A stretch of DNA of 64,000 bases, taken from the NCBI GenBank assembly GCA_020633975.1, contig JACKCR010000010.1, positions 65,839 through 129,838 of the forward strand, read 5' to 3'. The translations under genes and the position numbers were made by a program. The notes beneath the pieces are model-generated. The model worked only from the letters and a program-made list of their open reading frames with translations. It was not told where the DNA came from and did no database searches. Origin of the DNA: Candidatus Eiseniibacteriota bacterium. GTDB lineage: Bacteria; Eisenbacteria; RBG-16-71-46; CAIMUX01. Below are positions 1 to 62,183 of this stretch, piece by piece. How positions within the stretch are numbered: the stretch's first letter is position 1; each line of letters opens with the position of its first letter.

Positions 1-63
1 GCGCTTCCGTCCCTTGGGAATGGAGTGCAGAGACTGTCACGCCACCACGCCGAGGACGGACCA

Positions 64-3000
64 ATGAAGCTGCGAACGTTCGATCGACGTGCCCTGCTGG
101 GCGTAGTCTGCACCCTCGTCGGCCTGGGCATCGGGGGCACACTTGCCGGTACCTCCCACCGCAATGAGGCGGTCCGGTCCGATTCCGTGGGCCGCTTCCT
201 TCAGCTCGCATTCGTGAGCGACGCCTTGGCAGAGTCCACGAACCCGCACGGTGACCTCGAGATCGACTGCTCGGTCTGTCACACCGCGACGTCTTGGCGG
301 GTGGACACCAAGATCGAAGGGTTCGACCATGCCGAGACGGCCCACTACCCGCTGACTCTCGCCCACTCGACGGTTCCTTGCCGCAGTTGTCACACCGACC
401 TGGTCTTCGAGAACGCGGGGACCAACTGCGCGGACTGTCACGACGACGTCCACAACGGCGACCTCGGCGATCGCTGCTCTCGCTGCCACACCGCGGACAC
501 CTGGAATGCGATGGACGCCGCCATCTCGGAGCACGCGAACACGGACTTCCCACTTCTGGGAACCCACGCCAGCACACCCTGCGCGTCGTGCCATCCGAGC
601 GCGCTCGCGGGCACGTTCCGCGACGCCCCGGTCGACTGCAGCGGATGCCACATGGATGAGTTCCTCCAGACGACGGACCCGAACCACTCCCGGGCCGGCT
701 TCCCGGAAGACTGTACATCCTGTCACTCGTCGACTGCCGTCGCCTGGGAGCCGGCGCAGTTCGAACATCCGTCGAGCTTCCCGCTCGAGGGTGGCCACTC
801 CGGCCCCGCCTGCGCCGACTGCCACCAATCGTCCTTCGACGACACCCCGACCGAGTGCGCCGGATGCCATCTCACCGACTATGACAACGCCGACCCGAGC
901 CATGACGGATTCCCGCAGGACTGCACGACCTGTCACTCCTCGGTCAGCTGGACTCCGGCGGACTTCGATCACGACCGGTCCTTCCCGCTCGTCGGCGCGC
1001 ATCAGGCGGTCGACTGCACGGACTGCCACACGTCCGGCTACACCGGAACGCCGACCGAGTGCTCCGATTGCCACGCTTCGGACCTCGAAGCGGCCGATCC
1101 GAACCACGATGGGTTCCCCGAAGACTGCCTCACCTGCCACACGATGAACGCGTGGGACCCCGCGGACTTCGACCACGACGAAGTATTCCCGCTGGAAGGA
1201 GCGCACCGCGACGTCCAGTGCGCGGACTGCCACACGAACGGGTACGAGGACACGCCGAGCCTCTGCAACGACTGTCACCGTGCCGACTTCGAGAACGCGG
1301 AGCCGGACCATGTGTCCGGAGCGTTCCCCGAGGACTGCACGACGTGCCACTCCCTCCTGGCCTGGGAACCCGCCGAGTTCGAGCATCCGGAGAGCTTCCC
1401 GCTCACACTAGGTCACGCAGACGTCGCTTGCTCTTCGTGCCACGAGTCCGGCTACGAAGACACGGAGACGGAGTGCGTCGGATGTCACCTCGCGGACTCA
1501 CAGGGCGCGACTCCGAGCCACGACGGTTTCGGAAGCGAGTGCACCTCGTGTCACTCCCTCGCGGCCTGGACGCCGTCGAACTTCGAGCATCCGCAGTCAT
1601 TCAAGCTCGACCAAGGACACTCAGGCGTGGACTGCGCCTCCTGTCACGCCGCCGGGTACGAAGACACACCGACCGAGTGCGCCGAGTGCCACCGCGCGGA
1701 CTACGAAGGCGCCGAGCCGGACCACGTCCAGGGCGGATTCCCGGATGACTGCACCACCTGCCACTCCCTCGCGGCGTGGCAGCCGGCGGCGTTCGAGCAC
1801 ACGCCGTCCTTCCCACTCACGCAGGGACACAGCGGACTCGTGTGTGCATCCTGCCACTCCTCCGGATTCGAGGACGTTCCGACGGACTGCGTGGAGTGTC
1901 ACCTCGCGGACTCCCAGCAAGCGTCACCGAGTCACGATGGTCTCGAGCAGGACTGCACCAAGTGCCACTCCACCGCGCAGTGGCAGCCCTCGAACTTCGA
2001 ACACCCGGCCACGTTCTCGCTCACGCAGGGTCACGCGGACGTGGACTGTGCGTCGTGCCACTCTTCGGGCTATTCGGGTACATCGACCGAGTGCGTCGAC
2101 TGCCACCTCGCGGACTCGCAGCAGGCGACCCCGAGCCACGACGGCTTCAGCCGGGAGTGCACCACCTGCCACTCGACGGTGGCCTGGCAACCGGCCGGTT
2201 TCGATCACCCGACGACGTTCCCGCTCACGCAGGGGCATGCGGACGTCGCGTGCGCGTCCTGCCACTCGGGCGGCTACGAAGGCACGTCCACCGAGTGCGT
2301 AGACTGCCACCTCGCGGACTCGCAGCAGGCGGTACCAAGTCACGACGGCTTCAGTCCGGACTGCACGACGTGTCACTCGACCGCTCAGTGGCAGCCGTCG
2401 AACTTCGAGCACCCGTCGACGTTCCCGCTGACGCTGGGACACGAAACCGTCGACTGCGCGTCGTGCCACACGAGTGGGTACGAAGGCACGCCCACCGACT
2501 GTGAGGGATGCCACCTCCCCGACTACGAGCAGGCGGAACCGGACCACGTCGACGGCGGCTTCCCACACGACTGCACTACCTGCCACTCGCTCGCCGCATG
2601 GCAGCCGGCCGCGTTCGAGCACACACCGACGTTCCCGCTCACGGAAGGTCATGCCGACCGCACCTGCGCGTCCTGCCATGCGTCTGGGTACGAAGGCACG
2701 CCGACCGAGTGCGTCGATTGTCACCTCGCGGACTCGCAGGCCGCCGTCCCGAGCCACGACGGACTCCCGCAGGACTGCACGACCTGTCACTCCACCACGA
2801 CCTGGAATCCGTCCAGCTTCGAGCATCCGACCTCGTTTGCGCTCACCGAGGGACACGACGGCGTCGACTGCGCGTCCTGCCATGCCTCCGGGTACGAAGG
2901 CACGTCGACCGACTGCGTCGACTGCCACCTCGCCGACTCGCAGGCGGCCGTGCCGAATCACGATGGACTCCCGCAGGACTGCACGACCTGTCACTCGACC

Positions 3001-6000
3001 ACGACCTGGAATCCGTCGAGTTTCGAGCACCCAATGTCGTTCGCGCTGACCGAGGGACACGAGGGTGTCGACTGCGCGTCCTGTCATACTTCCGGCTATG
3101 AGGACACATCGACCGACTGCGTCGACTGTCACCTCGCGGACTCACAGCAGGCCGAGCCGAGCCACGACGGACTCCCGCAGGACTGCACCACGTGCCACTC
3201 GACGACCGGGTGGGAACCGTCGGAGTTCGAGCACCCGAGCGAGTTCCCGCTCACCGAGGGACACGACGGCGTCGACTGCGCGTCTTGCCATGCCTCCGGC
3301 TACGAGGGCACGTCGCCAGAATGCGTCGACTGTCACCTCGTGGACTCGCAGCAGGCCGAGCCTAGTCACGACGGACTTCCGCAGGACTGCACGCAGTGCC
3401 ACTCGACCACGACCTGGGATCCGTCGAGCTTCGAGCATCCGAGCGAGTTCCCGCTGGCCGGTGGCCACGAAGGCGTCGACTGCGCGACCTGTCACACGTC
3501 CGGTTACGAAGGCACGTCGCCGGAATGCGTCGACTGCCATCTCGCCGACTCACAGCAGGCCGAGCCCAGTCACGACGAGTTCCCCACGGACTGTGCGCAT
3601 TGCCACACGATCCAGGGCTGGGTCCCCGCCGACTTCGACCACACCCCGACCTTCCCACTGACCCTGGGACACTCGGGACTCTCGTGCGGCTCCTGCCACT
3701 CCTCGGGGTACGAAGGAACTCCGACGGACTGCGCCGAGTGCCACATCGAAGACGCCCAGGGCGCGACTCCGAGCCACAGTCAGTTCCCGCTCGACTGCAC
3801 GGAGTGTCACTCGACAGCGAGATGGAATCCGTCGAACTTCGAGCACCCGGGCTCGTTCCCGCTCTCGGGCGGACACGACAACGTGGAGTGCAACTCCTGT
3901 CACACCGGCGGTTTCGAGAACACATCGACCGAGTGCGTGGACTGCCACCTGGCGGACTCCCAGCAAGCGGAGCCGAGCCACGACGAGTTCCCGACCGACT
4001 GCACGACCTGTCACACCATCCAGGGCTGGGTTCCGGCCGACTTCGAGCACACGCCGAGCTTCCCGCTCACCGAGGGGCACGAAGGTCTGGCCTGTGCGTC
4101 CTGTCACACCGCTGGGTACGAAGGCACGTCGCCCGAGTGCATCGATTGCCACCTCGTCGACTTCCAAGGGGCCGAACCGGACCACGTGGGTGGAGGGTTC
4201 CCGGAGGACTGCACGAGCTGTCACAACATGTCGACTTGGGAGGACGCGCAGTTCGTCCACACCGTGAGCTTCCCGCTCATCGGTGGGCATGCGGGTGTGT
4301 CTTGCCTGGAGTGCCACTCCGCGGGGTATGACAACACCCCGAACCAGTGTGTCGACTGTCACCTCGCGGACTCGCAGCAGGCCGATCCGAGCCACGATGG
4401 GCTGCCGACGAACTGCCAGACCTGTCACTCGCTCAACGGCTGGACCCCTTCGACCTTCCGGCACACGTCGGAGTTCCCGCTCACTCAGGGACACGCGGAC
4501 GTCGACTGCGCGTCGTGTCACAGCTCCGGCTACGACAACACGCCGACCGAGTGCATCGACTGCCATCTCACAGACTTCCAGGGCGCCGAACCGGACCACG
4601 TCGATGGAGGCTTCCCCGAAGACTGCACGACCTGCCACTCGATGGCGGAGTGGATCCCCGCGGAGTTCGACCACACACCGACGTTCCCGCTCTCCGGTGG
4701 ACACGACAACGTCCCGTGCGCGTCGTGTCACTCCGCCGGATACGAGAACACGCCGAACGTCTGCGTCGACTGCCACCTTGCCGACTCTCAGAGCGCCATC
4801 CCGAGCCATGACGGGCTCCCGACGGACTGTACGACGTGTCACACCATCCAGGGTTGGATCCCGTCGAGCTTCGAGCACACGCCGTCGTTCCCGCTGACGC
4901 AGGGACACGCGGACGTCGACTGCGCGTCCTGCCACTCGGCCGGCTACGACGGAACCCCGACCGATTGCATCGAGTGCCACCTCACGGACTACCAGGGCGC
5001 CGAACCGGACCACGTCCAAGGCGGCTTCCCCGAGGACTGCACGACGTGTCACTCGATGGCGGAGTGGATCCCTGCGGAGTTCGACCACACACCGACGTTC
5101 CCGCTCTCCGGCGGGCATGACAACGTCCCGTGCGCGTCGTGTCACTCAGCTGGATACGAGAACACACCGAACGTCTGCGTCGACTGTCACCTCGCGGACT
5201 CGCAGGGCGCGGTCCCGACGCACGACGGACTCCCCACGGACTGCACGACGTGTCACACGATCCAGGGGTGGGTCCCATCGAGCTTCCAGCACACGCCATC
5301 CTTCCCGCTCACACAGGGACACTCGGGCGTCGACTGCGCGTCCTGCCACTCGGCCGGCTACGACGACACGCCGACCGACTGCATCGACTGCCACCTCGCC
5401 GACTACCAGGGGGCGGAACCGAGCCACGACGGGTTCCCCGAGGATTGCTTGTCGTGTCACAACATGGCGTCGTGGGACGACGCGGACTTCTTCCACACGA
5501 CGGAGTTCCCGCTCACGGGTGGACACGACAACGTCCCGTGCGCGTCGTGTCACTCTGCCGGATACGAGAACACGCCGGCCGATTGCGTCGAGTGTCACCT
5601 CGCGGACTTCATGAACGCGGAGCCGGACCACGTCGACGGCGGGTTCCCCGAGGACTGCACGGCCTGCCACACCATCCAAGGCTGGACCCCGGCGGACTTC
5701 GAACACACACCGACGTTCCCGCTCGTCCAGGGACACTCGAACCTCGCCTGTGCCGACTGCCACTCCGCGGGATACGAGAACACGTCGCCCGAGTGCATCG
5801 AGTGCCACCTCGTCGACTATCAGACGGCCTCGCCCGACCATGACGGCGCAGGTTTCCCGACCGACTGCACGAGCTGTCACTCGCTCGTCGGATGGGACAA
5901 CGCGGACTTCGACCACGACAACAGCTGGTTCCCGATCTACACCGGAACCCACCGAGAGAAGTGGGACACCTGCACCGACTGCCATACCAACCCTGGTGAC

Positions 6001-6138
6001 TTCACGATCTTCACCTGCATCGATTGCCACGCGCATCGGCAGTCGGAGATGGATCAGAAGCACCAGGAAGAGAACGTGGACGACTACGTGTACGAGAGCA
6101 CTGCCTGCTACGCGTGCCACCCGAGAGGTCGCCATTGA
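64..6138 (+). CDS. Giant multiheme c-type cytochrome of about 2,025 aa. I count about 85 CxxCH motifs in about 28 tandem ~67-aa (201-nt) c7-like triheme modules, with an N-terminal signal/anchor. The start could instead be at 25.
   Basis: The repeating unit is FPLTxGH..CASCH..GYEGT.TEC.DCH.LADSQQA.PSHDG.P.DCTTCH..W.PS.FEH.. Each unit has 3 CxxCH and 3 additional conserved His, which fits bis-His ligation. The spacing resembles Geobacter PpcA (FPHKAH...CKKCH). A hydrophobic segment follows the ATG at 64. GAGGACGG lies 5 nt upstream of that ATG. Confidence 0.85.
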   Translation: MKLRTFDRRALLGVVCTLVGLGIGGTLAGTSHRNEAVRSDSVGRFLQLAFVSDALAESTNPHGDLEIDCSVCHTATSWRVDTKIEGFDHAETAHYPLTLAHSTVPCRSCHTDLVFENAGTNCADCHDDVHNGDLGDRCSRCHTADTWNAMDAAISEHANTDFPLLGTHASTPCASCHPSALAGTFRDAPVDCSGCHMDEFLQTTDPNHSRAGFPEDCTSCHSSTAVAWEPAQFEHPSSFPLEGGHSGPACADCHQSSFDDTPTECAGCHLTDYDNADPSHDGFPQDCTTCHSSVSWTPADFDHDRSFPLVGAHQAVDCTDCHTSGYTGTPTECSDCHASDLEAADPNHDGFPEDCLTCHTMNAWDPADFDHDEVFPLEGAHRDVQCADCHTNGYEDTPSLCNDCHRADFENAEPDHVSGAFPEDCTTCHSLLAWEPAEFEHPESFPLTLGHADVACSSCHESGYEDTETECVGCHLADSQGATPSHDGFGSECTSCHSLAAWTPSNFEHPQSFKLDQGHSGVDCASCHAAGYEDTPTECAECHRADYEGAEPDHVQGGFPDDCTTCHSLAAWQPAAFEHTPSFPLTQGHSGLVCASCHSSGFEDVPTDCVECHLADSQQASPSHDGLEQDCTKCHSTAQWQPSNFEHPATFSLTQGHADVDCASCHSSGYSGTSTECVDCHLADSQQATPSHDGFSRECTTCHSTVAWQPAGFDHPTTFPLTQGHADVACASCHSGGYEGTSTECVDCHLADSQQAVPSHDGFSPDCTTCHSTAQWQPSNFEHPSTFPLTLGHETVDCASCHTSGYEGTPTDCEGCHLPDYEQAEPDHVDGGFPHDCTTCHSLAAWQPAAFEHTPTFPLTEGHADRTCASCHASGYEGTPTECVDCHLADSQAAVPSHDGLPQDCTTCHSTTTWNPSSFEHPTSFALTEGHDGVDCASCHASGYEGTSTDCVDCHLADSQAAVPNHDGLPQDCTTCHSTTTWNPSSFEHPMSFALTEGHEGVDCASCHTSGYEDTSTDCVDCHLADSQQAEPSHDGLPQDCTTCHSTTGWEPSEFEHPSEFPLTEGHDGVDCASCHASGYEGTSPECVDCHLVDSQQAEPSHDGLPQDCTQCHSTTTWDPSSFEHPSEFPLAGGHEGVDCATCHTSGYEGTSPECVDCHLADSQQAEPSHDEFPTDCAHCHTIQGWVPADFDHTPTFPLTLGHSGLSCGSCHSSGYEGTPTDCAECHIEDAQGATPSHSQFPLDCTECHSTARWNPSNFEHPGSFPLSGGHDNVECNSCHTGGFENTSTECVDCHLADSQQAEPSHDEFPTDCTTCHTIQGWVPADFEHTPSFPLTEGHEGLACASCHTAGYEGTSPECIDCHLVDFQGAEPDHVGGGFPEDCTSCHNMSTWEDAQFVHTVSFPLIGGHAGVSCLECHSAGYDNTPNQCVDCHLADSQQADPSHDGLPTNCQTCHSLNGWTPSTFRHTSEFPLTQGHADVDCASCHSSGYDNTPTECIDCHLTDFQGAEPDHVDGGFPEDCTTCHSMAEWIPAEFDHTPTFPLSGGHDNVPCASCHSAGYENTPNVCVDCHLADSQSAIPSHDGLPTDCTTCHTIQGWIPSSFEHTPSFPLTQGHADVDCASCHSAGYDGTPTDCIECHLTDYQGAEPDHVQGGFPEDCTTCHSMAEWIPAEFDHTPTFPLSGGHDNVPCASCHSAGYENTPNVCVDCHLADSQGAVPTHDGLPTDCTTCHTIQGWVPSSFQHTPSFPLTQGHSGVDCASCHSAGYDDTPTDCIDCHLADYQGAEPSHDGFPEDCLSCHNMASWDDADFFHTTEFPLTGGHDNVPCASCHSAGYENTPADCVECHLADFMNAEPDHVDGGFPEDCTACHTIQGWTPADFEHTPTFPLVQGHSNLACADCHSAGYENTSPECIECHLVDYQTASPDHDGAGFPTDCTSCHSLVGWDNADFDHDNSWFPIYTGTHREKWDTCTDCHTNPGDFTIFTCIDCHAHRQSEMDQKHQEENVDDYVYESTACYACHPRGRH

Positions 6139-6179
6139 GGAGGAAGGCGATTCCTAGCCGCTCCGGTGTCGCGTGGGGT

Positions 6180-7916
6180 GTGCTTGTGGGTGCGGCCGTC
6201 GGCGCATTGGTCGTGGTCTCCGCATCGGCCGCGCTCGGGCAGATCGATCCGACGAGCGGATCGGTTGCTGCATCCGCGGGCGCGGTATCTTCCGCTGCGG
6301 AGTCCACTCGATCGGGCGATGCGCTCCTCCATCTCGAGGGGCACGTGCGCCAACTCTCCGTGGACTTCGTGTACGTCGACCTCGGCACGACCGACGGGCT
6401 CGCCATCGGCGACACACTCTCCGTCACCTCAGGCGCGAGCCGCGGCGAGTCGCTCGTCACGACCTACGTAGCTGGCCGTTCGGCTTCGTGTCAGCTCGTG
6501 TCGCGGCCGGGCACGACCGGATCGATCGCCGTGGGTGACGCCGTCGCAGCAACTCTCCACGGGCGAGGAGGCGAATCCCGTTCTCAGACTGCGCCGACCA
6601 AACTCTCGTTCCCGACCCCGCGAAGTGGGGTAATGCCCACGTCGTCAGGCGGCGCAAGGGCCCCACGCACGCGAGAAGGTTGGGGGCGCGTTCACGGCTC
6701 ACTCTCTGTCGATTGGCTCCAGACCGTGAGCGACAACGGGGAGAGGACGACCCGGGATCCGCGCGGACGGTTCGAGGTTCGCGGCCGCGACCTCTTCGGC
6801 AAGAACCTGCGTGCACGCGCAAGCCTCCGCACCGGGCGTCGCACTAGTTCGAGTTCGAGCGACGGAAGTTCCCTTCCGGAAGTCCGGCAACTCTGGTTCG
6901 ACTACCACGACGAGCCATCCAACGTGGGCGTTCGGGGCGGACGCCTCCTCGTCGCCGAAGCAGGGTCCTTCGCCTACCTCGACGGGGGTGCGGTCAACTA
7001 CGCGCCCGTCTCCCACCTGGACCTCGGACTGTATGCAGGTCGTCAGCCGGAATGGGTGGATCGAAGCGCCAAGGGGGACGTCTACATCGTGGGAGGCGCC
7101 GCGCGTTTGCCGATGGAGAGAGTCCGTTCCTCCCTACTCGTTTCGCTCCTCCGCGAGATCCGGCAGCAGGACCGCAACCGGGATTGGGCCTATGTCGAGG
7201 CGAGGTCGGAGCCGTTCACCACGTTGCGGCTCTACGCGCGGACCCAGTTCCAGCTGACCAAGCGAGACGAGTCCGAGCGACTCCCAAGCGAGTCTGATCC
7301 CGAATTCGATCCGACCGACTACGACGTCTTCCGCAGCTACCTAGAGTCGCGGCTCTCCGTCTCCGCCCGGTATCGGCCGGTCGACGAGTTCTGGTGGTCC
7401 CTCAGCTACGACGAGAGCTCGCTTCTCTCGGAGTACGAAGGCACCACGACCACGGAGGATCGTTTCGACCGCTCCGCGAGGAACGGCTGGCGCACGACGC
7501 TCAGTCTCGAACCCGCCGAGTTCTGGCGAACGCAGCTCGGCGGGAGCTGGCGGGAAGGCGAGTCTCAGGACGACCGGTGGTCCGTGAACGGGTACGTCCA
7601 GCGGCAGCGACTCGTATCCTGGCCGCTCGATCTGACCGTGCAGATGCGCGTGTTCGACGCCGGGTACTCGAAGGGATCGACGCCATCAGTCGAACTCGAA
7701 CACATCTCGCCACACGGCTACTCACTGGAGCTCCGTGGCGGGATGCACATCTACGAGGCAACTGGATCGACCGACGCGCGGTCGGATCAGTGGGTACGGA
7801 TCAGTTCGTCGGTCAGCCTGCCCTCGCGGTTCCGCATCCTCCTGGAAGCGGAAACTTCGTCGGGCGACAATGCGATCGGCTCTCGCTTCTACGGGCAAGT
7901 CGTGCGGAGTTTCTAG
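6180..7916 (+). CDS. Predicted secreted outer-membrane beta-barrel protein (porin-like) encoded immediately downstream of the giant cytochrome.
   Basis: The ORF frame 6024..7916 overlaps the cytochrome 3' end. An in-frame GTG near 6180 gives a signal-like N-terminus (MLVGAAVGALVVVSASAALGQ). There are alternating amphipathic segments, many aromatic-ending strands and a C-terminal ...GQVVRSF with terminal Phe, as is typical of OM beta-barrels. A GGAGGA SD is at 6138-6143, so the true start is uncertain. Confidence 0.5.
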   Translation: MLVGAAVGALVVVSASAALGQIDPTSGSVAASAGAVSSAAESTRSGDALLHLEGHVRQLSVDFVYVDLGTTDGLAIGDTLSVTSGASRGESLVTTYVAGRSASCQLVSRPGTTGSIAVGDAVAATLHGRGGESRSQTAPTKLSFPTPRSGVMPTSSGGARAPRTREGWGRVHGSLSVDWLQTVSDNGERTTRDPRGRFEVRGRDLFGKNLRARASLRTGRRTSSSSSDGSSLPEVRQLWFDYHDEPSNVGVRGGRLLVAEAGSFAYLDGGAVNYAPVSHLDLGLYAGRQPEWVDRSAKGDVYIVGGAARLPMERVRSSLLVSLLREIRQQDRNRDWAYVEARSEPFTTLRLYARTQFQLTKRDESERLPSESDPEFDPTDYDVFRSYLESRLSVSARYRPVDEFWWSLSYDESSLLSEYEGTTTTEDRFDRSARNGWRTTLSLEPAEFWRTQLGGSWREGESQDDRWSVNGYVQRQRLVSWPLDLTVQMRVFDAGYSKGSTPSVELEHISPHGYSLELRGGMHIYEATGSTDARSDQWVRISSSVSLPSRFRILLEAETSSGDNAIGSRFYGQVVRSF

Positions 7917-7940
7917 CGAACGTAGGTAGGAAGGGAAGCG

Positions 7941-9287
7941 GTGGGGATGTCGGAGTCGGGATTCATCTGGGGCGGAGTCGTCGTCGTCAGCGCGGTGGTG
8001 TTCGCATACTACCTGAGGCAGTTCACGCGACGCGCGAAGGCCGATGAGGCGAGGCAAGCGAGTGCCCGGCAGGCCGGGATCGACAAGGCCGTCTCCCAGC
8101 ATCCGCACATCGACGAACTCTCCTGCATCGGCTGCGGCAGCTGCGTGGACGCCTGCCCCGAAGGAGACGTCCTCGGCATCGTGTCGGGAGTCGCCGTCCT
8201 CATCAACGGCCTCCGCTGCGTAGGGCACGGCCGCTGCGCCGAGGTCTGTCCGGTCGGCGCGATCCAGATCGGGCTCGGCGACATCAGCATGCGAACCGAC
8301 CTCCCGATCCTCGGGGCGGGGCAGGAGACGACCGTACCAGGCGTGTTCGTCGCAGGTGAACTGAGCGGGTTCTCGCTCATCCGCAACGCGATCACTCAAG
8401 GCGCGGAAGTAGCAGACCACATCGCGAAGCATCGGCCCAGGTCGACCGACCCGAACGTTCTCGACCTCGTCGTCGTCGGAGCCGGGCCCGCGGGTATCTC
8501 CGCCGCACTCAGTGCGAAGCGAGCAGGGCTCCGCTGCGTCGTCGTCGACCAACAAGGCGTCGGTGGGACGATCCTCCAGTTCCCTCGACGAAAGCTCGTC
8601 CTCACGCAGCCGGTGGAACTGCCGCTCTACGGGATGTTGCGGTCGAGCGAGTACACGAAGGAAGAGCTGGTCGACATCTGGAGCGAGATCCCCGAACGGT
8701 TCGATCTCGACGTGCGGATCGGGCATCGCGTCGTGGGCGTGGAGAAGACGGGCGGAGGATTCCGAGTCTCCACCGAGAACGGCCCGTCTTGGGACACCAT
8801 GAACGTAATGCTCGCGCTGGGTCGCCGTGGATCGCCCCGCAAGCTCGGAGTTCCCGGCGAGAACCAGGCCAAGGTGCTCTATCAGCTCCTCGACGCGAAG
8901 TCTTACAAGGGACGTCGAGTGCTGGTGGTTGGTGGAGGGGACTCCGCAGTCGAAGCCGCCATGGCGCTCGCAAAGCAGAACGGCACTCAGGTGACGATCT
9001 CCTATCGCAAGGACCAGTTCGCCCGGATCAAGAAGCGGAACCAGGATCGGCTGGACCCACTCCTCGCGTCCGGAAAGATCAAGACGCTCTACAGCTCGAA
9101 CGTGCTCTCCGTGGGCGCCGACCGAGTGCGTCTCGCCGTCCCCGAAGGCGAACTGGACCTGCCCAACGACGACGTCTTCGTGCTGATCGGCGGCGACCCG
9201 CCCTACCCGTTCCTCCGCGGCATCGGCATCCGCTTCGGCGGGGAGACGACGTCGGCCACCGAGCGGAGCGCGGTCGCCCAGGCCTGA
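7941..9287 (+). CDS. Membrane-anchored 2x[4Fe-4S] ferredoxin-domain protein fused to an FAD/NAD(P)-binding pyridine-nucleotide-disulfide-type oxidoreductase domain.
   Basis: N-terminal TM helix (FIWGGVVVVSAVVFAYY). Two cluster motifs CIGCGSCVDACPEG and CVGHGRCAEVCPVG. Two Rossmann motifs VVVGAGPAGISAA and VLVVGGGDSAVE. The SD ggaagggaag lies upstream. Confidence 0.8.
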   Translation: MGMSESGFIWGGVVVVSAVVFAYYLRQFTRRAKADEARQASARQAGIDKAVSQHPHIDELSCIGCGSCVDACPEGDVLGIVSGVAVLINGLRCVGHGRCAEVCPVGAIQIGLGDISMRTDLPILGAGQETTVPGVFVAGELSGFSLIRNAITQGAEVADHIAKHRPRSTDPNVLDLVVVGAGPAGISAALSAKRAGLRCVVVDQQGVGGTILQFPRRKLVLTQPVELPLYGMLRSSEYTKEELVDIWSEIPERFDLDVRIGHRVVGVEKTGGGFRVSTENGPSWDTMNVMLALGRRGSPRKLGVPGENQAKVLYQLLDAKSYKGRRVLVVGGGDSAVEAAMALAKQNGTQVTISYRKDQFARIKKRNQDRLDPLLASGKIKTLYSSNVLSVGADRVRLAVPEGELDLPNDDVFVLIGGDPPYPFLRGIGIRFGGETTSATERSAVAQA

Positions 9288-9478: not shown

Positions 9479-10723
9479 TTGTCCCAGCCTTCCGTCGGTC
9501 GTGGTTCGGTCCTCACTCTCCTTCTACTCAGCTCGATGACCGTCATGGCGGGAGCGACGATCTCGCCGACCCTTCCCTCGATCGGCAAGGTGTTCGCGGA
9601 CACCCCGAGAAGCGACCTGTTGGTCCGGCTCGTCCTGACCCTGCCGGCACTCTTCACGGCGATCGGCGCGCCGATCGCGGGTGGGATCATCGATCGGTTC
9701 GGTCGACGCCCTCTCCTCTTCGGCGTGATCGTTCTCTACGCACTGGCCGGAGGATCCGGACTCTTTGCCCGTGACCTCTCAGAACTGCTCATCGGAAGAG
9801 CAGGGCTCGGGCTCGCCGTAGGAGGCATCCTCACTACGGCGACCACGCTGATCGCGGACTACTTCGGCGGCGACGAGCGGTCGAAGGTTCTGGCATGGCA
9901 GTCGGCATTCATGGGGATCGGTGGGGTCGGCTTCGTGACGTTGGGAGGGTTCCTCACCGACGTGAGCTGGAGGGCACCGTTCAGCGTCTACCTCCTGGCT
10001 CTCGTCTACCTTCCCCTCGTCGCCCTCTTCCTGCCCGAACCCCGCCGCTCGGGCACGGGAGAGCAAGTCGACGACGGTCGGGAGTCGGCCCCCGGCCCCG
10101 ACGGCTCCAGTGAGGCGCTCACTTCGAGCGGAGCGACCGCGAGTTCGGCGATGGTTCCGCGCCGTGTTCTCGGCTTGGTGTACGCGCTCGGATTCCTCGG
10201 CATGATCGTCTTCTTCGCCTTGCCCGTTCAGCTGCCGTTCCACCTCCAGGCCATCGACGACGTGCCCGCGACGAAGGTGGGGCTTGCGCTCGCTACGATG
10301 ACCGCGGTTGCGGCGTGCACCTCTCTCGCCTACCCGAAGCTGCGTGCGCGGCTGTCGTTTCCAGCGATCTTCGGCGTGCAGTTCCTGCTCCAGGGCGCCG
10401 GATACCTGCTCCTCGGCTCCGCGCCGAGCTACACCGGCGCGTTTCCCGGACTGGTCATCGCAGGGGCCGGCGCCGGACTGCTGGTCCCGAACGTCCAGCT
10501 CTGGACGAGTCGGCTCGCGCCCGCCGAGCTTCGCGGACGAGTTCTCGGTGGACTCGGACTCTGCTTGTTTCTCGGGCAGTTCCTGTCCCCCATGGTGACG
10601 CAGCCGCTCGCCACCAGCCGCGGGTACGGGGGGATGTATGGTTCGCTCGCGTCCTTCCTCCTCGCCTTTTCTGCGCTGTTCATCTTGGGGTCGATCGTTC
10701 GGAAGAATCGGCGGCCGAGGTGA
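9479..10723 (+). CDS. MFS-family transporter. TTG start at 9479 preceded by an AAAGGAG SD. The longer ORF 8789.. is a spurious N-terminal extension.
   Basis: 12-TM profile with the MFS signature region G..IDRFGRRPLL and two 6-helix halves. Only from about 9479 onward is the sequence hydrophobic-periodic. Confidence 0.75.
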   Translation: MSQPSVGRGSVLTLLLLSSMTVMAGATISPTLPSIGKVFADTPRSDLLVRLVLTLPALFTAIGAPIAGGIIDRFGRRPLLFGVIVLYALAGGSGLFARDLSELLIGRAGLGLAVGGILTTATTLIADYFGGDERSKVLAWQSAFMGIGGVGFVTLGGFLTDVSWRAPFSVYLLALVYLPLVALFLPEPRRSGTGEQVDDGRESAPGPDGSSEALTSSGATASSAMVPRRVLGLVYALGFLGMIVFFALPVQLPFHLQAIDDVPATKVGLALATMTAVAACTSLAYPKLRARLSFPAIFGVQFLLQGAGYLLLGSAPSYTGAFPGLVIAGAGAGLLVPNVQLWTSRLAPAELRGRVLGGLGLCLFLGQFLSPMVTQPLATSRGYGGMYGSLASFLLAFSALFILGSIVRKNRRPR

Positions 10724-11118: not shown

Positions 11119-14100
11119 ATGCGGTGGACCGTCCGAATCCTGGTGGCCTGGGGCCTAGTCATCTGTATGGGGATCGCGAGCCACTCGGCAAACGCCGAGA
11201 GCTACCCCAAGACTGCGCAGATCTGTACTCAGGTCGGCACCTACAGCGACGCGCAGCGAGACAGCCTCTCGTGGTACGACCTCGTGGCGTTCACGGAAGG
11301 TCCCAACGTCGTCGACGACCTCAGAGGCCGGAATCCCGAGATCGACCTACTGTTCGCGTGGATGCCCCAGCTCATCTATGACCACGAAGAGGACGAGACG
11401 TTCTGGTACCCCGACACCAGCTGGAGTCTCGTCCGCCTCGCCGAGTTCTATGCCCTCCAGAACGACTGGTACCTCTACAACACCGATGGGAGCCGTCCTC
11501 GGCTCTACAACTCCTGGATCAGCAACTGGACGCCGGACTGCCCTCCGGGCACGTATGGCGATTCGAACGGGCTGACCTACGCAGAGTGGCTGGTCCAGAA
11601 GGCCATTCCCCGAATCATCCACGGAGAGGCCCGCTGGGAAGAATGGGGACCGAACAGCTCCGCCTACCAAGGCTTCTTCTTCGAGGTCATGGGCGACTGT
11701 ATGAACGTCTTCCCCGACGCGGACCCAGACCGTGACGGGATTCCGGAGGGCATCTACTCGTCCTGTTGCTCAGGAGGTTCGGAAGACCCCCTCGCAGTCA
11801 TGATGCGCGAAGTGAACGTTGCGTTCGGGAACGGTCTCCGCGAGACGCTGGGGCCCGACATCGCCATCATCATCAACGGCGTCAACAACTGCGTCCGTCC
11901 CGACTGGAACTGGATCAACGGCATCAAGCTCGAATCCTGGAACCAGTCCCCCAATCCTTCGTGGCTGGACTGGTGGAGCTTCTTCTACTCGCTGACCAAC
12001 TACTCGGGAGACGTCAGCTGGGAGACCGGCTACACGTGGGCCGAGGAAAACCTCGGGCGTTCCGGCAACGACAGCGCTGAAGGCTGGGACATGACCATGC
12101 TCCAGGTGATCATGAAGGACACCTGGACCGAGAGCTTCACCCAGAAGCGGCGAGCCTACGGGATGGGCACGGCCATGCTCGGTGACGGCTACTACACCCA
12201 GACCGTGGACCAGCAGCGGATCCACTACACCTCCGAGTTGGACTGGGACTTCGGGGATGCGGTGGAAGACTACTTCGTCGAGATCTACGAAGGAGTCACT
12301 CCATACGACTCCCTGTATGTCCGCCGATTCGAAAAGGGGATGGTCGAGGTCAACCCGAACGAGACCATGATCGCCGGCGTCTCGTCGGAAACGTCCCGGT
12401 TCACGTGGTGGGAGCCGGTCACAGACCTCACGGCCGAGGCAGCTGAAGGAAGCGCCATTCGCCTTCAGTGGACTGCGCCCGAAGACCTGTCGATCGAGGG
12501 TCAGGAGATCCGATACGCATCGTTCCCCATCGACGAGGACTCCTGGGACTCCGCTACGACGTGGCCAGAATTCGTCGAGTCCGAACCGGGGCACGTCCAC
12601 TCGTATCTCCTGACCGGACTTCCTGGGCCTGCCACGTACTACGTCGCGATGAAGAACCGCGTCCACGGGAAGCTCGAGTACACGGTCTCGAACCTCGGGG
12701 TGGCCACGAACGGCGCGCCGGAGCCGGACGAAGACGCGCCGTCCCCGGTCGAAGACCTCTCCGTCCTCGAGGTCGGTGACCAGACCGCTCGAATCCGCTG
12801 GTCCGCACCCGGTGACGACGGAAGCGAAGGAGCGTGTTCTCTCTACGAGGTTCGAACGCGCCGTGGCACCGCGATCCTCACAGAGGCGGACTGGGACGAA
12901 GCCAGACCGGTCTCCGACCCTCTCCCCGCTCCCGACGGCTACGGAAGTGAACAGACCCTCGAAATCACGGGCTTGATCAGCGGTACCCTCCAGGCCATCG
13001 CACTTCGCGGCGTCGACGACGCCGGCAACCTGGGCCCGCTTTCGAATCCGTTCACCGTTCTCACCAGCGGCAACCCTCCCCACCAGCTCGATCAGTTCCC
13101 TCCCGCTACGATCGACGATCTCAGCATCGTGTGGGTCGACAGTACCGAAGTGATGCTCGAGTGGACGGCAGTCGGCGACGACGGCAACGAGGAACGGGCA
13201 GAGGCCTACGAGGTTCGGGTACTCGAGGGCGGAGAGATCACGAACAAGGTCGATTGGGACTTGGCGCAACTCGCGCCTGTGCCGGCGCCGGAACCCGCGC
13301 TCCCAGGCCAACTCGAACAGTTCACCTTCCCAGGCCTCACCCCGTCGACGTTCTACGGGTTCGCGGTTCGTGCCATCGACGACGTCGGAAACGTCGGTGG
13401 CATCTCGAACTCTCCGACCGCGACGACGGAGTCTTCGGAAGAGGATCCGCCTCCACCACCGCCCGATGATCCGGTACCGCCGGTGGAGATCGACGACCTC
13501 ACCATCTCGGCCGTCGACTCGACGCGGATCCAGCTCCGTTGGACAGCTCCCGAGGACGGCGAAGACGGCGCAGTCCTCGCCTACGAGATCGCTGTGCTCG
13601 CAGGCGACTCGCTCGAAATCCCGGCCGGCTGGGACGACGCCGAAATCGTCTCCGGACCGGCCACGCCGGCGAGCCCGGGAACGATCGAGTCCTTCTGGAT
13701 CGAAGCGCTCACGCCGGAAACTCTCTACGGGTTCTCGATCCGTTCGGTCGACGCCGACACGCTCTGGTCACCACCGTCCGCTCCCGTCCACGCGACCACG
13801 CTCGCTGGGCCGGACGAGCCCGACCCGGATCCGGACCCCGATCCACCCGCGGCGATCGACGATCTCGCAGCCGCGAGCGTCGACTCCGTCCGCTGCAAGC
13901 TGAGTTGGACCGCACCTGCCGACGGGCTCGGTGAAACTGTCGCGTCGTACGAACTCGGCTTCCTGATCGACAAGCCGCTCGCCCAAGAGGCCGACTGGGA
14001 ACTCGCCACTCACTACGCGGGCCCGTTCCCCCTGACCCCGGGCAGCAGCCAGTCCCATTGGGTTTCCGACCTCGAGCCCGGGCACGCCTACGGAGTCGCC

Positions 14101-16407
14101 GTCGTGTCGTACGACTCCGAGGGACGTCGGTCTCCGCTCTCGAACCCGCTCTCGATCGAGACGCTCGAACTCACCGATCCCGGCGACGGCGGTGGGAACG
14201 GCGGAGGAGGCGGCGGTGGAGGTGGCGGCGGCGGCGAGCAGGACACGATCCCGCCCGCAACCGTGGGCGACCTGAGTCTTCTCGAAGCGTCCCTCACCGA
14301 TGCGCGCCTCGGTTGGACTGCAGTCGGTGACGACGACATGATCGGTCGCGCTGCCGGATACGTCTTGTACCTGCAGTCAGCGGCAGCACTCGACAGCGTG
14401 GCCTGGACCGGCACACGCGAGCCGGGCGACAGCGAGTCGCGTACCTTCTCTGACCTCACTGAGGCGACCGCGTACGTCGCAACTCTCGTCGTGCTCGATG
14501 AAGTCGGCAACCGGAGCGAGCCCAGCAACCCGCTCGAGTTCTCGACAGACGCCCCGCCTCCACCGGACGACACGACTCCTCCGTCACAAGTGACACTCGA
14601 CCTTCTCGTCGCACTCGGAACGGACGCAATCCAAGTCGATTGGACATCTGTCGGAGACGACGGCACCGACGGTACTGCAAGCGCGTACCGCGTCTCGTGG
14701 CGGGATGGGGCACCGATCGAGAACGAGGACCAGTGGGCCGCCGCGCCGTACGTGGACCTCACGACCGACCTTCCCCCATCTGGGCAGTCGATGTCGGCAA
14801 CGATCGACGGCCTCGAAGCCGGTCGTCTCTACGGATTCAGCGTCCGTGCACGTGACGACGCCGGCCTCTGGTCGCAGCTCAGCCAACCGGCAGCCGTCGA
14901 GACCAACGACGACGAGATAGACCTACCCCCCAAGCGGATCACGGACCTCGACATCGACAGCCGAACGCCGACGACGCTGACCCTCTCTTGGACCGCTCCT
15001 GCCGACTCGGCACCCATCGCAGCCGTGGCTGCGTACGAGATTGGTTGGCTCGCCGGACAGGCGATTGAAACGGAGAAGGACTGGGAAGCAGCGACCCACG
15101 TTCCCGGCCCGCAACCCGCCGCCCCCGGCCTCGCGGAGACGTTCGAGATCACCGGCCTCCAGGCGGAAACCTCCTACGGAATCGCCGTACGCGCCATCGA
15201 CTCGACCGAGAACCTCGGGCCGATCTCCAACCCGATCGTCGGAACGACCGAGGCGTTGGACGGCGGCGACGACCCTGGCGACGGCGGCGACGACCCAGGC
15301 GACGGTGGCGACGACCCAGGCGACGGCGGTGATGACCCCGGCGACGGCGGCGATGACCCCGGCGACGGCGGCGACGACCCAGGCGACGGCGGCGACGACC
15401 CAGGCGACGGCGGTGATGACCCCGGCGACGGCGGCGACGACCCCGGCGACGGTGGCGACGACCCAGGCGACGGCGGCGACGACCCAGGCGACGGTGGCGC
15501 TCTCGTTCCGCCGGCTCCGATCGACGACCTACGTGTCGGCTCGATGGGTCCGGACTGGATCGACCTGCACTGGACGGCCACGGGTGAAGACGAAACGACC
15601 GGATCGTGTGTCCGCTACGAAATGCGGACCTTGGTCGGCCGTCCGATCGCCACGGGCACGGACTGGACGCAAGCGTCGGTGCTGGACATCACGCTTCCAG
15701 CACCAGGACCTGCGGGCTTTGCTGAGACGATCCGCATCGAGAATCTAGACCGTCTCGTCGGTCACGGATTTGCGATCCGCGCGCTCGACTCCGAAGGCAT
15801 CTGGTCACCGTTCCGCGCCGGCGCGTATCTCGCCTCGATGGACCTCGCTCCGCCGAGTCCGCCGGAAAGCCCGTCCGCAAGCTGGAACGGTTCCGAGCTC
15901 AGCTTGGAATGGCGGGCGTCGACGGATCCTCGAGTTGCGGGCTACCACGTGTACCGGCAAGGAGCGGATCAGGGTTGGCAACGACTGACGACCGATCCGC
16001 TGACCGAGACCTCGTTCGTGATCGAGGGAGTGTCCCCTGACCTCCTCCGTCGCGTCGCGGTGACCGCAGTTCTGATCGAGGGCACGGAGAGTTCTCTCGC
16101 ATCGACCGGTACGCTCTTCGAGGCCGAGTGGAAGGTGGAGGGACCGTTCCCGCATCCGATCCACGAGTCGGCTCGATTCGTCCTCACGATGCCGGCCGTA
16201 GTCGACGGCACACTGCGGATCGAACTCCTGGATCTCCTCGGCCGAAAGGTCCGCGTGCTCCAAGACGCGCCGGTGATCGGAGGGACGCGCGAGTGGACAT
16301 GGGATCGACGCGACGAGCAGGGTCAGCGCGTTGCTCCGGGCTTCTACCTGCTCCGGATCGTTGGGCCAGGCATCGACGAGCTGCAGAGAGTCTATGTCGC
16401 TCCGTAG
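11119..16407 (+). CDS. Giant secreted cell-surface protein (about 1,760 aa). It has a signal peptide, an N-terminal ~450-aa glycoside-hydrolase-like (TIM-barrel-like) domain, about 10 FN3-like repeats, Gly-rich and acidic low-complexity linkers, and a C-terminal FlgD-Ig/T9SS-type sorting domain.
   Basis: The ATG at 11119 gives MRWTVRILVAWGLVICMGIASHSANA. The repeats resemble FN3, for example DLSVLEVGDQTARIRWSAPGDDG...YEVR...LEITGL...YGFAVRAIDDVGN. The C-terminus GTLRIELLDLLGRKVRVL...WTWDRRDEQGQRVAPGFYLLRIV matches the FlgD_ig/Por_Secre_tail pattern. Confidence 0.8.
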   Translation: MRWTVRILVAWGLVICMGIASHSANAESYPKTAQICTQVGTYSDAQRDSLSWYDLVAFTEGPNVVDDLRGRNPEIDLLFAWMPQLIYDHEEDETFWYPDTSWSLVRLAEFYALQNDWYLYNTDGSRPRLYNSWISNWTPDCPPGTYGDSNGLTYAEWLVQKAIPRIIHGEARWEEWGPNSSAYQGFFFEVMGDCMNVFPDADPDRDGIPEGIYSSCCSGGSEDPLAVMMREVNVAFGNGLRETLGPDIAIIINGVNNCVRPDWNWINGIKLESWNQSPNPSWLDWWSFFYSLTNYSGDVSWETGYTWAEENLGRSGNDSAEGWDMTMLQVIMKDTWTESFTQKRRAYGMGTAMLGDGYYTQTVDQQRIHYTSELDWDFGDAVEDYFVEIYEGVTPYDSLYVRRFEKGMVEVNPNETMIAGVSSETSRFTWWEPVTDLTAEAAEGSAIRLQWTAPEDLSIEGQEIRYASFPIDEDSWDSATTWPEFVESEPGHVHSYLLTGLPGPATYYVAMKNRVHGKLEYTVSNLGVATNGAPEPDEDAPSPVEDLSVLEVGDQTARIRWSAPGDDGSEGACSLYEVRTRRGTAILTEADWDEARPVSDPLPAPDGYGSEQTLEITGLISGTLQAIALRGVDDAGNLGPLSNPFTVLTSGNPPHQLDQFPPATIDDLSIVWVDSTEVMLEWTAVGDDGNEERAEAYEVRVLEGGEITNKVDWDLAQLAPVPAPEPALPGQLEQFTFPGLTPSTFYGFAVRAIDDVGNVGGISNSPTATTESSEEDPPPPPPDDPVPPVEIDDLTISAVDSTRIQLRWTAPEDGEDGAVLAYEIAVLAGDSLEIPAGWDDAEIVSGPATPASPGTIESFWIEALTPETLYGFSIRSVDADTLWSPPSAPVHATTLAGPDEPDPDPDPDPPAAIDDLAAASVDSVRCKLSWTAPADGLGETVASYELGFLIDKPLAQEADWELATHYAGPFPLTPGSSQSHWVSDLEPGHAYGVAVVSYDSEGRRSPLSNPLSIETLELTDPGDGGGNGGGGGGGGGGGGEQDTIPPATVGDLSLLEASLTDARLGWTAVGDDDMIGRAAGYVLYLQSAAALDSVAWTGTREPGDSESRTFSDLTEATAYVATLVVLDEVGNRSEPSNPLEFSTDAPPPPDDTTPPSQVTLDLLVALGTDAIQVDWTSVGDDGTDGTASAYRVSWRDGAPIENEDQWAAAPYVDLTTDLPPSGQSMSATIDGLEAGRLYGFSVRARDDAGLWSQLSQPAAVETNDDEIDLPPKRITDLDIDSRTPTTLTLSWTAPADSAPIAAVAAYEIGWLAGQAIETEKDWEAATHVPGPQPAAPGLAETFEITGLQAETSYGIAVRAIDSTENLGPISNPIVGTTEALDGGDDPGDGGDDPGDGGDDPGDGGDDPGDGGDDPGDGGDDPGDGGDDPGDGGDDPGDGGDDPGDGGDDPGDGGDDPGDGGALVPPAPIDDLRVGSMGPDWIDLHWTATGEDETTGSCVRYEMRTLVGRPIATGTDWTQASVLDITLPAPGPAGFAETIRIENLDRLVGHGFAIRALDSEGIWSPFRAGAYLASMDLAPPSPPESPSASWNGSELSLEWRASTDPRVAGYHVYRQGADQGWQRLTTDPLTETSFVIEGVSPDLLRRVAVTAVLIEGTESSLASTGTLFEAEWKVEGPFPHPIHESARFVLTMPAVVDGTLRIELLDLLGRKVRVLQDAPVIGGTREWTWDRRDEQGQRVAPGFYLLRIVGPGIDELQRVYVAP
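15259..15498 (+). repeat. About 11 perfect tandem copies of a 21-nt unit (gacggcggcgacgacccaggc) encoding (DGGDDPG)n inside the surface-protein gene. A poly-Gly run lies at about 14185-14245.
   Basis: Direct reading of the sequence. The protein shows GGDDPGD x12. Confidence 0.9.
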
Positions 16408-27255: not shown

Positions 27256-27295
27256 TTGCGACGATGACCTCGATCCAGCGGCCGCCATCGATGGA

Positions 27296-39889: not shown

Positions 39890-39976
39890 CCATCAACAGC
39901 TGACTCCGGCCACCCGGAATCGCTATTCTCTTCCTGGCCGAATGCAACGTTGCCCATCCCACTCGAGGAGGTCCCC

Positions 39977-62173: not shown

Positions 62174-62183
62174 CGTCGTCTCC

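Follow-up and report, generated by a model that had tools for sequence, protein, structure and literature searches.

A predicted PCC3-type electron conduit with an 85-heme cytochrome and a conserved iron-sulfur flavoprotein in Candidatus Eisenbacteria

A 64,000-nucleotide stretch of a Candidatus Eiseniibacteriota genome (assembly GCA_020633975.1, contig JACKCR010000010.1, positions 65,839 to 129,838 of the forward strand), called the window in its entirety, begins with the right-hand three of the five genes of a locus that is assigned here, from sequence comparison, to the PCC3-type clusters and places them in a new phylum. These three genes encode a giant multiheme cytochrome c, a predicted outer-membrane beta-barrel, and a membrane-anchored iron-sulfur (Fe-S) flavoprotein; a second multiheme cytochrome (MHC) and a predicted di-heme b membrane protein are encoded just upstream. 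Genome comparison indicates that the flavoprotein is a regular part of the PCC3 system, and this conserved and sometimes fused component likely changes both the published composition of PCC3 and the point at which electrons enter it. The five gene products probably form a trans-envelope conduit in which a chain resembling that of NOX/FRE enzymes would carry electrons from NAD(P)H to the outside.

PCC3 clusters, which are among the most widespread predicted extracellular-electron-transfer clusters, were defined from genomes of iron oxidisers as a bioinformatic prediction of unverified function (He et al. 2017, Front Microbiol 8:1584, PMC5566968). The four published genes encode a porin; a repetitive extracellular MHC with a median of 34 hemes and a low ratio of amino acids (aa) to hemes; a periplasmic MHC with a median of 21 hemes; and an inner-membrane protein of ~300 aa with five transmembrane (TM) helices, the motif SGxxG on TM4, and WX3HX13H on TM3 and TM5 (PMC5566968). 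He et al. likened this membrane protein to the ferric-reductase domain, proposed that it contacts quinones, and drew the cluster as a supply of electrons to the quinone pool when Fe(II) is oxidised; an 85-heme case, from Agromonas oligotrophica S58, was already on record (PMC5566968).

Gene layout and assignment to PCC3

The genes at the left end of the window form a run on the + strand, and gene calls in the window are backed by codon-position GC content, with values of 0.75-0.84 at third positions. Their features are as follows.

2-67, +: 3' end of the upstream ~20-heme, putatively periplasmic MHC gene (last 21 codons and stop), cut by the left edge of the window
64-6138, +: giant multiheme cytochrome c, 2024 aa, from ATG 64 to TGA 6138, in a frame open from position 25
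1323-5823, +: array of triheme c7-like modules inside the giant cytochrome gene, period 204 nucleotides (nt) or 68 aa, ~22 copies
6135-7916, +: outer-membrane beta-barrel protein as predicted from an AlphaFold model, 593 aa, TTG start
6324-6560, +: small N-terminal beta domain of the barrel protein, residues 64-142
6687-7913, +: barrel of ~22 strands, residues 185-593
7947-9287, +: membrane-anchored Fe-S flavoprotein, predicted to face the cytoplasm, 446 aa
7959-8015, +: TM helix of the flavoprotein, residues 5-23
8124-8252, +: Fe-S motifs CxxCxxCxxxCP and CxxHxxCxxxCP of the flavoprotein, the second at 8217-8252 (residues 91-102)
8478-8495, +: FAD motif GAGPAG of the flavoprotein
8931-8948, +: NAD(P)H motif GGGDSA of the flavoprotein

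A preliminary description of the window, made from its letters, had proposed a three-gene electron wire comprising a giant cytochrome, a secreted protein with barrel features and a C-terminal Phe, and a TM-anchored Fe-S protein with FAD and NAD(P) motifs. All three genes are where it placed them, and its reading is supported in part, but the predicted conduit has five genes. The TTG of the barrel gene at 6135 overlaps the stop of the giant cytochrome gene and is preceded by GAGAGG, and the ATG of the giant cytochrome gene (64-66) is in turn overlapped by a TGA (65-67). The translation of window positions 2-67, RFRPLGMECRDCHATTPRTDQ*, is identical to the C-terminus of a 551-aa cytochrome in a 97%-identical relative (L005; loci in other genomes are given by such numbers), so the upstream ~20-heme gene is cut by the left edge of the window.

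The genes beyond that edge were read in L005 and in an 83% relative (L001), where two genes precede the giant cytochrome gene: one for a 304-aa polytopic membrane protein, then one for a cytochrome of 551-584 aa. The called genes for this cytochrome contain 17-18 CxxCH motifs and its full reading frame 20, and the stop of its gene overlaps the start of the giant gene; across phyla its counterparts have 20-23 CxxCH. The membrane protein has five hydrophobic segments, with W104X3H108X13H122 on TM3, S144GVFG (SGxxG) on TM4, and W273X3H277X13H291 on TM5; His 108, 122, 277, and 291 are invariant. Stacked pairs of b hemes, as in cytochrome b and NOX/FRE, are classically held by two helices that each bear two His 14 residues apart; the protein is a predicted di-heme b cytochrome. 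Pfam gave a weak DUF4405 match and no Ferric_reduct match. DUF4405 proteins bind heme b (PMC11334425). Positive residues precede TM1, which by the positive-inside rule suggests a topology with the N-terminus inside and the C-terminus outside, in agreement with the gene fusions described below.

Each published feature of PCC3 has a counterpart at this locus. The barrel gene stands as a porin gene beside MHC genes; the giant cytochrome is large and repetitive (85 CxxCH at 23.8 aa per heme, in 68-aa triheme repeats), its extracellular location being a prediction; the second, ~21-heme MHC is represented by its last 21 codons in the window and by 17-20 CxxCH in L005 and L001; and the five-TM membrane protein with its motifs is present in L005 and L001. 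The assignment rests on the published description and on homology to proteobacterial clusters of the published gene order (Thalassolituus, Thiogranum, Sedimenticola, and others). The proteobacterial loci retrieved show the published order of membrane protein, ~21-heme MHC, large MHC, and porin, whereas in Eisenbacteria the order is membrane protein, MHC, MHC, barrel, and flavoprotein; this order and the host phylum are new. The composition had been thought undescribed, but porin, giant MHC, ~21-heme MHC, and membrane protein are those of PCC3 (PMC5566968). What does appear to be unreported is the link to the flavoprotein: a search limited to open-access papers and bioRxiv found no mention of an Fe-S flavoprotein in the PCC3 papers it covered, and an earlier description elsewhere is possible. 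The cluster also goes unmentioned in the Caldithrix genome paper.

Conservation and linkage across genomes

The order of cytochrome, barrel, flavoprotein, and major facilitator superfamily (MFS) transporter genes is kept in all four Eisenbacteria relatives (97, 83, 71, and 68% identity in the barrel gene). Farther afield, a Caldithrix abyssi metagenome-assembled genome (MAG; L008) and GCA_016712675.1 (L006) encode flavoproteins 54-56% identical to that of the window within the same five-gene cassette, in the order membrane protein, 20-heme MHC, 19-22-heme MHC, ~530-aa protein, and flavoprotein. In GCA_016712675.1, ZnuA/ABC-3 metal ABC-transporter genes and a gene for a DtxR-type (Fe_dep_repress) regulator lie on both sides of the cassette (L006, 1-2057 and 10235-14649), which may point to a connection with metal acquisition there.

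Linkage was assessed from both ends of the cluster. In the forward direction, an alignment of the flavoprotein was searched against one genome per GTDB species, which gave at least 586 matching stretches, of which 80 loci were kept; their contents were read from six-frame open reading frames (ORFs), hidden Markov models of three families, and CxxCH counts, and were tallied in the loci of at least 15 kb (n=52). The membrane protein was present in 49/52, the barrel in 45/52, two or more MHCs of at least 10 hemes each in 47/52, and all of these in 41/52. These flavoprotein-selected loci span more than 12 phyla, and at least three gene orders occur among them; such differences in order between lineages argue against plain inheritance of a neighbourhood. 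Groups represented among the 80 loci include Calditrichota, Ignavibacteria, Krumholzibacteria, Marinimicrobia, Planctomycetota, Elusimicrobia, Acidobacteriota, and Bacteroidota, as well as Gemmatimonadota, Alpha- and Gammaproteobacteria, Myxococcota, Verrucomicrobia, Brocadiaceae, Zixibacteria, and Actinomycetota. The expectation in the preliminary description that the synteny would be conserved in relatives is therefore borne out, down to 68% identity within Eisenbacteria and for the gene set well beyond them.

In the reverse direction, 80 metagenome loci were selected by proteobacterial membrane-protein sequences. Among the 39 with at least 3.5 kb of upstream sequence, all but one (38/39) carry the flavoprotein gene, divergently transcribed in 37. 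The full set is found in cultured Thalassolituus oleivorans and Thiogranum longum, in the proteobacterial layout, and in the Caldithrix abyssi MAG. Within the 45/52 loci that have a barrel, the barrel gene directly adjoins an MHC gene in almost all.

In 11 Planctomycetota, one Elusimicrobia, and two Brocadiaceae loci, a single ORF of 742-854 aa encodes both flavoprotein and membrane protein, and in these lineages the barrel gene lies between the two cytochrome genes. In the fusion examined in detail, that of L016, the TM anchor and both Fe-S motifs are retained, together with five more TM segments and both W-x3-H-x13-H motifs. The fusions are found in these loci.

L016, 9953-12226: flavoprotein-membrane protein fusion
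L018, L023, L026, L030, L032, L035, L043, L048, L052, L061, L073, L074, and L078: further fusions

Across loci, one MHC is conserved in size (17-27 hemes) and the other ranges from 7 to 87 hemes, with large examples of 70 hemes in a Saprospiraceae MAG, 55 in a Beijerinckiaceae MAG, and 85-87 in Eisenbacteria.

Several lineages have additional genes in the cluster. The next gene after that of the flavoprotein in Proteobacteria and Myxococcota encodes a 600-715-aa protein with Sel1 and ankyrin repeats, mostly with a signal-like N-terminus, and appears to be a sixth gene specific to these lineages; in its place, L171 (6185-8125) encodes a 646-aa protein with no Pfam hit on record. Acidobacteriota clusters contain an extra gene between the barrel and membrane-protein genes, for a protein of 260-320 aa without a Pfam match and in some cases with a signal-like N-terminus. 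In Marinimicrobia and a few other lineages (L017, L019, L020, L028, L047, L010, L080), a third, small cytochrome of 8-13 hemes is encoded between the large cytochrome and the barrel. The coordinates of the first two kinds are listed here.

L046, 11326-13311; L058, 11247-13322; L085, 11269-13413; L086, 11330-13147; L170, 575-2500: Sel1-ankyrin genes
L031, 8184-9014; L037, 6312-7211; L041, 8228-9016; L088, 12333-13265: extra genes of Acidobacteriota

The flavoprotein

The flavoprotein belongs to a family that is very large by homologue search. It begins with a TM helix (residues 5-23) followed by RQFTRRAK, continues with the Fe-S motifs C60xxCxxCxxxCP and C91xxH94xxCxxxCP, and then has a flavin domain with GAGPAG (FAD) and GGGDSA...YRK (NAD(P)H). 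The positive residues after the helix suggest, by the positive-inside rule, that the Fe-S and flavin domains are cytoplasmic, and an invariant YRK that follows the second Rossmann strand points to NADPH as the cofactor. Both Fe-S motifs of the preliminary description are present, but in the second His94 replaces the second Cys and is invariant in 28/28 aligned family members. The motif may thus hold a 3Fe cluster or a [4Fe-4S] cluster with a His ligand, comparable to exit clusters known from some hydrogenases.

Among solved structures, the flavin domain is nearest to YpdA, TrxR, and TrxR-type ferredoxin-NADP+ reductase (FNR) (7a76 and 7a7b, E ~1e-25). The flavoprotein shares FAD and NADPH motifs with YpdA/Bdr, but the catalytic Cys of YpdA (GGGPCG) is Ala here (GAGPAG), and the redox-active CxxC of low-Mr TrxR has no counterpart: seven of its eight Cys lie inside the Fe-S motifs, and there is no CxxC. 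It differs from all three relatives in its extra TM anchor and ferredoxin domain, and its family scores are far below the respective cut-offs (161 bits vs 340 for YpdA; 92 bits vs 343 for TrxR). Since the catalytic Cys residues of YpdA and TrxR are missing, the protein is read as an NAD(P)H:Fe-S electron-transfer module and not as a disulfide reductase. The concern that it might be a housekeeping enzyme of the TrxR kind is also answered by its linkage to the cluster almost everywhere and its fusion to the membrane partner.

The giant cytochrome

The giant cytochrome contains 85 CxxCH motifs and 176 His in its 2024 aa, with a hydrophobic signal-like segment after ATG 64. Its body consists of ~26 tandem units of 68-70 aa, each with three CxxCH and three further His, which match Cytochrome_C7 and Cytochrom_c3_2 in Pfam. 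At the DNA level the repeat has a period of 204 nt, 21.8 copies, and 69% identity, and because the copies are only 69% identical the repeats are old and no artefact of assembly. Independent assemblies of relatives give 87 hemes in L005 and 17+68 hemes over two broken ORFs in L001. In the latter (GCA_041390305.1, 3929-10004), the gene is called as two overlapping ORFs, which probably reflects a frameshift or an assembly error in the repeat array.

The conserved ends of the protein, NPHGD..DC..CH at the N-terminus and ACYxCHPxG at the C-terminus, recur in the 19-22-heme proteins that occupy its place in L006 and L008. In phmmer searches, the 150 N-terminal residues matched 133 loci and the 130 C-terminal residues 127 loci, both queries including heme repeats common to all these MHCs. 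From these ends and its position, the giant cytochrome is the predicted orthologue of the 'extracellular' MHC of PCC3 clusters, whose size is variable. Solved multiheme wires have a length of roughly 0.8-1 nm per heme, and at this spacing an extended 85-heme chain could measure ~65-85 nm, which would be several times the width of the periplasm.

The barrel protein

The barrel protein of 593 aa ends in VVRSF, with a terminal Phe. Pfam and NCBIfam searches gave no match, and the best hit in a PDB sequence profile search (E ~0.2, to the last strands of OmpX/Ail) was not significant. A word-indexed homologue search returned four close homologues, all from Candidatus Eisenbacteria; a full HMMER profile scan returned 348 cluster representatives, typically of ~535 aa and aligned end to end. 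The alignment given to AlphaFold2 contained 132 sequences with 17-26% identity to the query, 127 of them distant members from the HMMER scan, and its consensus C-terminus is GYRF. With this alignment the model reached a mean pLDDT of 82.5 and a pTM of 0.67; with five close sequences alone the pLDDT was 30, so the distant members were needed.

The model shows a signal-like helix (residues 15-33), a beta domain (64-142), a disordered linker (146-175), and ~22 long strands from residue 185 to 592/593, mostly with pLDDT above 90. The product is accordingly modelled as an outer-membrane beta-barrel; failure of the barrel prediction had been named beforehand as a ground for abandoning the wire, and the outcome was in favour of a barrel. 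Alignment with hhalign to the ~530-aa proteins at the same position gave probabilities of 97.8% for Caldithrix (L008) and 97.0% for GCA_016712675.1 (L006), by which these proteins are assigned as homologues of the barrel. Family members (~535-590 aa) are shorter than the proteobacterial porins of 700-860 aa, and the match between them is weak (E 1e-5 to 1e-9).

The N-terminal beta domain (window 6324-6560) is confidently modelled and has the family-wide consensus VYLDxGxxxGLxxGD...SASC...GD. Hints to its fold or family were non-significant (FlgT_C-like; TsaP at E 1.2), and it may be a plug or a periplasmic docking domain.

A candidate electron route and its alternatives

It is on balance probable that the window and its upstream genes encode a five-gene PCC3-type trans-envelope conduit with a chain like that of NOX/FRE, possibly independent of quinones, running from NAD(P)H to the outside. 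The cytoplasm-facing flavoprotein, tethered by one helix, would oxidise NAD(P)H at its FAD and pass electrons through two Fe-S clusters, the second with the invariant His at a ligand position, to the five-TM protein with di-heme b motifs. This protein would move them across the cytoplasmic membrane in the manner of the NOX/FRE heme-b domain. The ~20-heme cytochrome would then take over in the periplasm, and the 85-heme cytochrome with the ~22-strand barrel would carry electrons through and past the outer membrane to an extracellular acceptor. The preliminary description had envisaged a membrane entry point for NAD(P)H or ferredoxin, but the flavoprotein, with its single helix without cofactors, cannot by itself carry electrons across a membrane, which makes the di-heme b protein the missing link.

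Outward flow is favoured because NAD(P)H is a strong reductant and the import of electrons from Fe(II) to NAD(P)+ would be uphill and against the membrane potential. Expression data from Sideroxydans lithotrophicus ES-1 are counted in support of the same direction, as both of its PCC3 clusters go down, not up, on Fe(II) (PMC8788666).

Several points weigh against this route. Motifs are the source of every cofactor assignment. Quinones may be a further reaction partner of the membrane protein, as in the proposal of He et al. Outward flow driven by NAD(P)H would conserve no energy, which suggests that the route would serve redox balancing or reductive solubilisation and not respiration proper. 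The giant cytochrome sequence contains no lipobox and no sorting domain, its surface location being predicted. Finally, the barrel assignment comes from AlphaFold without a sequence match in Pfam, NCBIfam, or the PDB.

The alternative that fares best, though it is unlikely, keeps PCC3 as published, with uptake of electrons from extracellular Fe(II) or minerals, or exchange in both directions, through the di-heme b protein to the quinone pool, and with the flavoprotein in an accessory role such as sensing, repair, or cofactor reduction. It was proposed by He et al. 2017, PCC3 occurs in several iron oxidisers, the His pattern of the membrane protein resembles that of quinone-reactive cytochromes b, and transcription of the membrane-protein gene in one PCC3 copy of Sideroxydans CL21 increased as cells gained the ability to oxidise iron. 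However, flavoprotein and membrane protein are linked almost everywhere and in places fused, which favours a direct partnership; most carriers come from heterotroph-rich lineages not known as iron oxidisers (Calditrichota, Bacteroidota, Planctomycetota, Acidobacteriota); and the response of ES-1 and the energetics of import from Fe(II), both given above, tell against it.

Still less probable is a reading in which the cytochromes stay within the periplasm and either store electrons or wire them to a reductase there, with the barrel serving as a substrate or secretion pore. The barrel is linked to two cytochrome genes in 45/52 long loci, is MHC-adjacent in almost all of them, and lies between the two in the fused lineages; its start codon overlaps the cytochrome stop in the window; and the extended 85-heme chain, at the length per heme given above, would exceed the periplasm several times over. 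Chance, or a neighbourhood inherited without function, as an explanation of the flavoprotein's position is excluded for practical purposes: synteny inside Eisenbacteria could be inheritance, and the MFS gene behaves in this way, but the linkage holds over more than 12 phyla, in rearranged orders, in both directions of selection, and in gene fusions.

The outward NAD(P)H-driven route can be extended from this locus to PCC3 in general, as a tentative proposal that falls somewhat short of an even chance: PCC3 would be a five-component, quinone-independent trans-envelope reductase, a bacterial counterpart of NOX/FRE over more than 12 phyla, and not a quinone-linked conduit for iron oxidation. If the partnership with the flavoprotein is functional, the cytoplasmic pool of pyridine nucleotides, and not quinol, may be the source from which electrons enter. 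The usual direction given to PCC3 would then be reversed, which would explain its lack of response to Fe(II) in Sideroxydans, and many uncultured heterotrophic phyla would have a cheap redox-balancing route to extracellular acceptors. Fermenters and heterotrophs would be able to discharge reducing equivalents onto minerals, humics, partner cells, or O2, and in Eisenbacteria a single 85-heme polypeptide could reach tens of nanometres from the cell. Iron-cycle annotation of metagenomes, in which PCC3 is a candidate mechanism of iron oxidation, would need revision. The cultured carriers Thalassolituus oleivorans, Thiogranum longum, and Caldithrix abyssi make the idea testable.

Neighbouring genes

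Two genes downstream of the flavoprotein gene were considered as parts of the system and rejected.

9536-10723, +: DHA-type MFS transporter, start codon uncertain (Pfam MFS_1, 4e-40)
11119-16407: FN3-repeat protein

The transporter gene follows the flavoprotein gene in the Eisenbacteria loci L001, L002, L004, and L005, and not in L006 or L008; the FN3 gene is likewise a neighbour in Eisenbacteria only and absent at L006 and L008. The latter encodes a secreted protein of 1762 aa. Its N-terminal region is GHL15-like, and it has seven or more FN3 domains, a long low-complexity run of (GGDDPGD)n, and, at the C-terminus, a weak match to FlgD_ig; it adjoins the cluster in L001 too and is unrelated to electron transfer.

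The remainder of the 64-kb window holds no further electron-transfer genes; two-component systems, aldehyde dehydrogenases, a sulfatase, and beta-propeller proteins are present. A hybrid histidine kinase (HisKA, HATPase, two receiver domains, and Hpt) is encoded on the - strand at 17689-20607, and it and further two-component genes (25255-28303) lie 1-10 kb downstream of the FN3 gene. A beta-propeller protein (39950-42694) and an NHL-repeat protein (60506-62236) are both secreted and end in FlgD_ig, one with a sub-threshold Por_Secre_tail match; these tails agree with the C-terminal sorting domains that the preliminary description gave for the lineage, and the giant cytochrome is without such a tail.

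Comparison with known systems

The analogy to Mtr and Pcc conduits drawn in the preliminary description holds for the logic of the system and not for its cytochromes. As in MtrCAB of Shewanella, MtoAB, and PioAB, an outer-membrane barrel is associated with a multiheme cytochrome and a surface cytochrome, but those systems use decahemes and the present one c7-type polymers of 20 and 85 hemes. Neither the 26-strand MtrB/PioB porin nor a decaheme of the DmsE/MtrA family was found (DmsE-family score 39.7 bits against a cut-off of 192), so the locus is not an Mtr homologue. In Mtr, CymA feeds the conduit from quinol; here, the di-heme b protein and the flavoprotein would take the place of CymA. The Geobacter Pcc system (OmbB-OmaB-OmcB) likewise joins a porin to two cytochromes, one periplasmic and one at the surface, but its cytochromes have 8 and 12 hemes and its surface cytochrome is a lipoprotein, in contrast to the ~20 and 85 hemes and missing lipobox of this locus.

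The giant cytochrome itself is most like the GSU1996 family of Geobacter (TIGR04257, nanowire_3heme), whose members are likewise built of c7-like triheme modules in tandem, with heme counts of the bis-His type. GSU1996 has four modules and 12 hemes, whereas the giant cytochrome has ~26 triheme units and divergent terminal segments for a total of 85 hemes.

For the inner-membrane step, the closest parallels are NOX, FRE, and STEAP, and MsrQ with Fre, in which two b hemes on His pairs of TM3 and TM5, spaced by 13 residues, receive electrons from a cytoplasmic NAD(P)H-flavin module and pass them outward. As in NOX, the TM heme and flavin modules are joined in one protein in several of the phyla examined here. 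The NOX/FRE dehydrogenase is of the FNR fold and C-terminal, whereas the module here is a flavoprotein of the TrxR/YpdA fold with a 2x[4Fe-4S]-type ferredoxin domain and is N-terminal; NOX/FRE enzymes have the PF01794 domain, whereas the membrane protein here has five TM helices and, as noted, no Ferric_reduct match; and their acceptor is O2 or Fe(III) at the membrane surface, whereas here it would be a chain of c-type cytochromes. With the His-pair geometry present and both PF01794 and the FNR-fold domain absent, the resemblance to NOX/FRE is one of analogy and not of membership.

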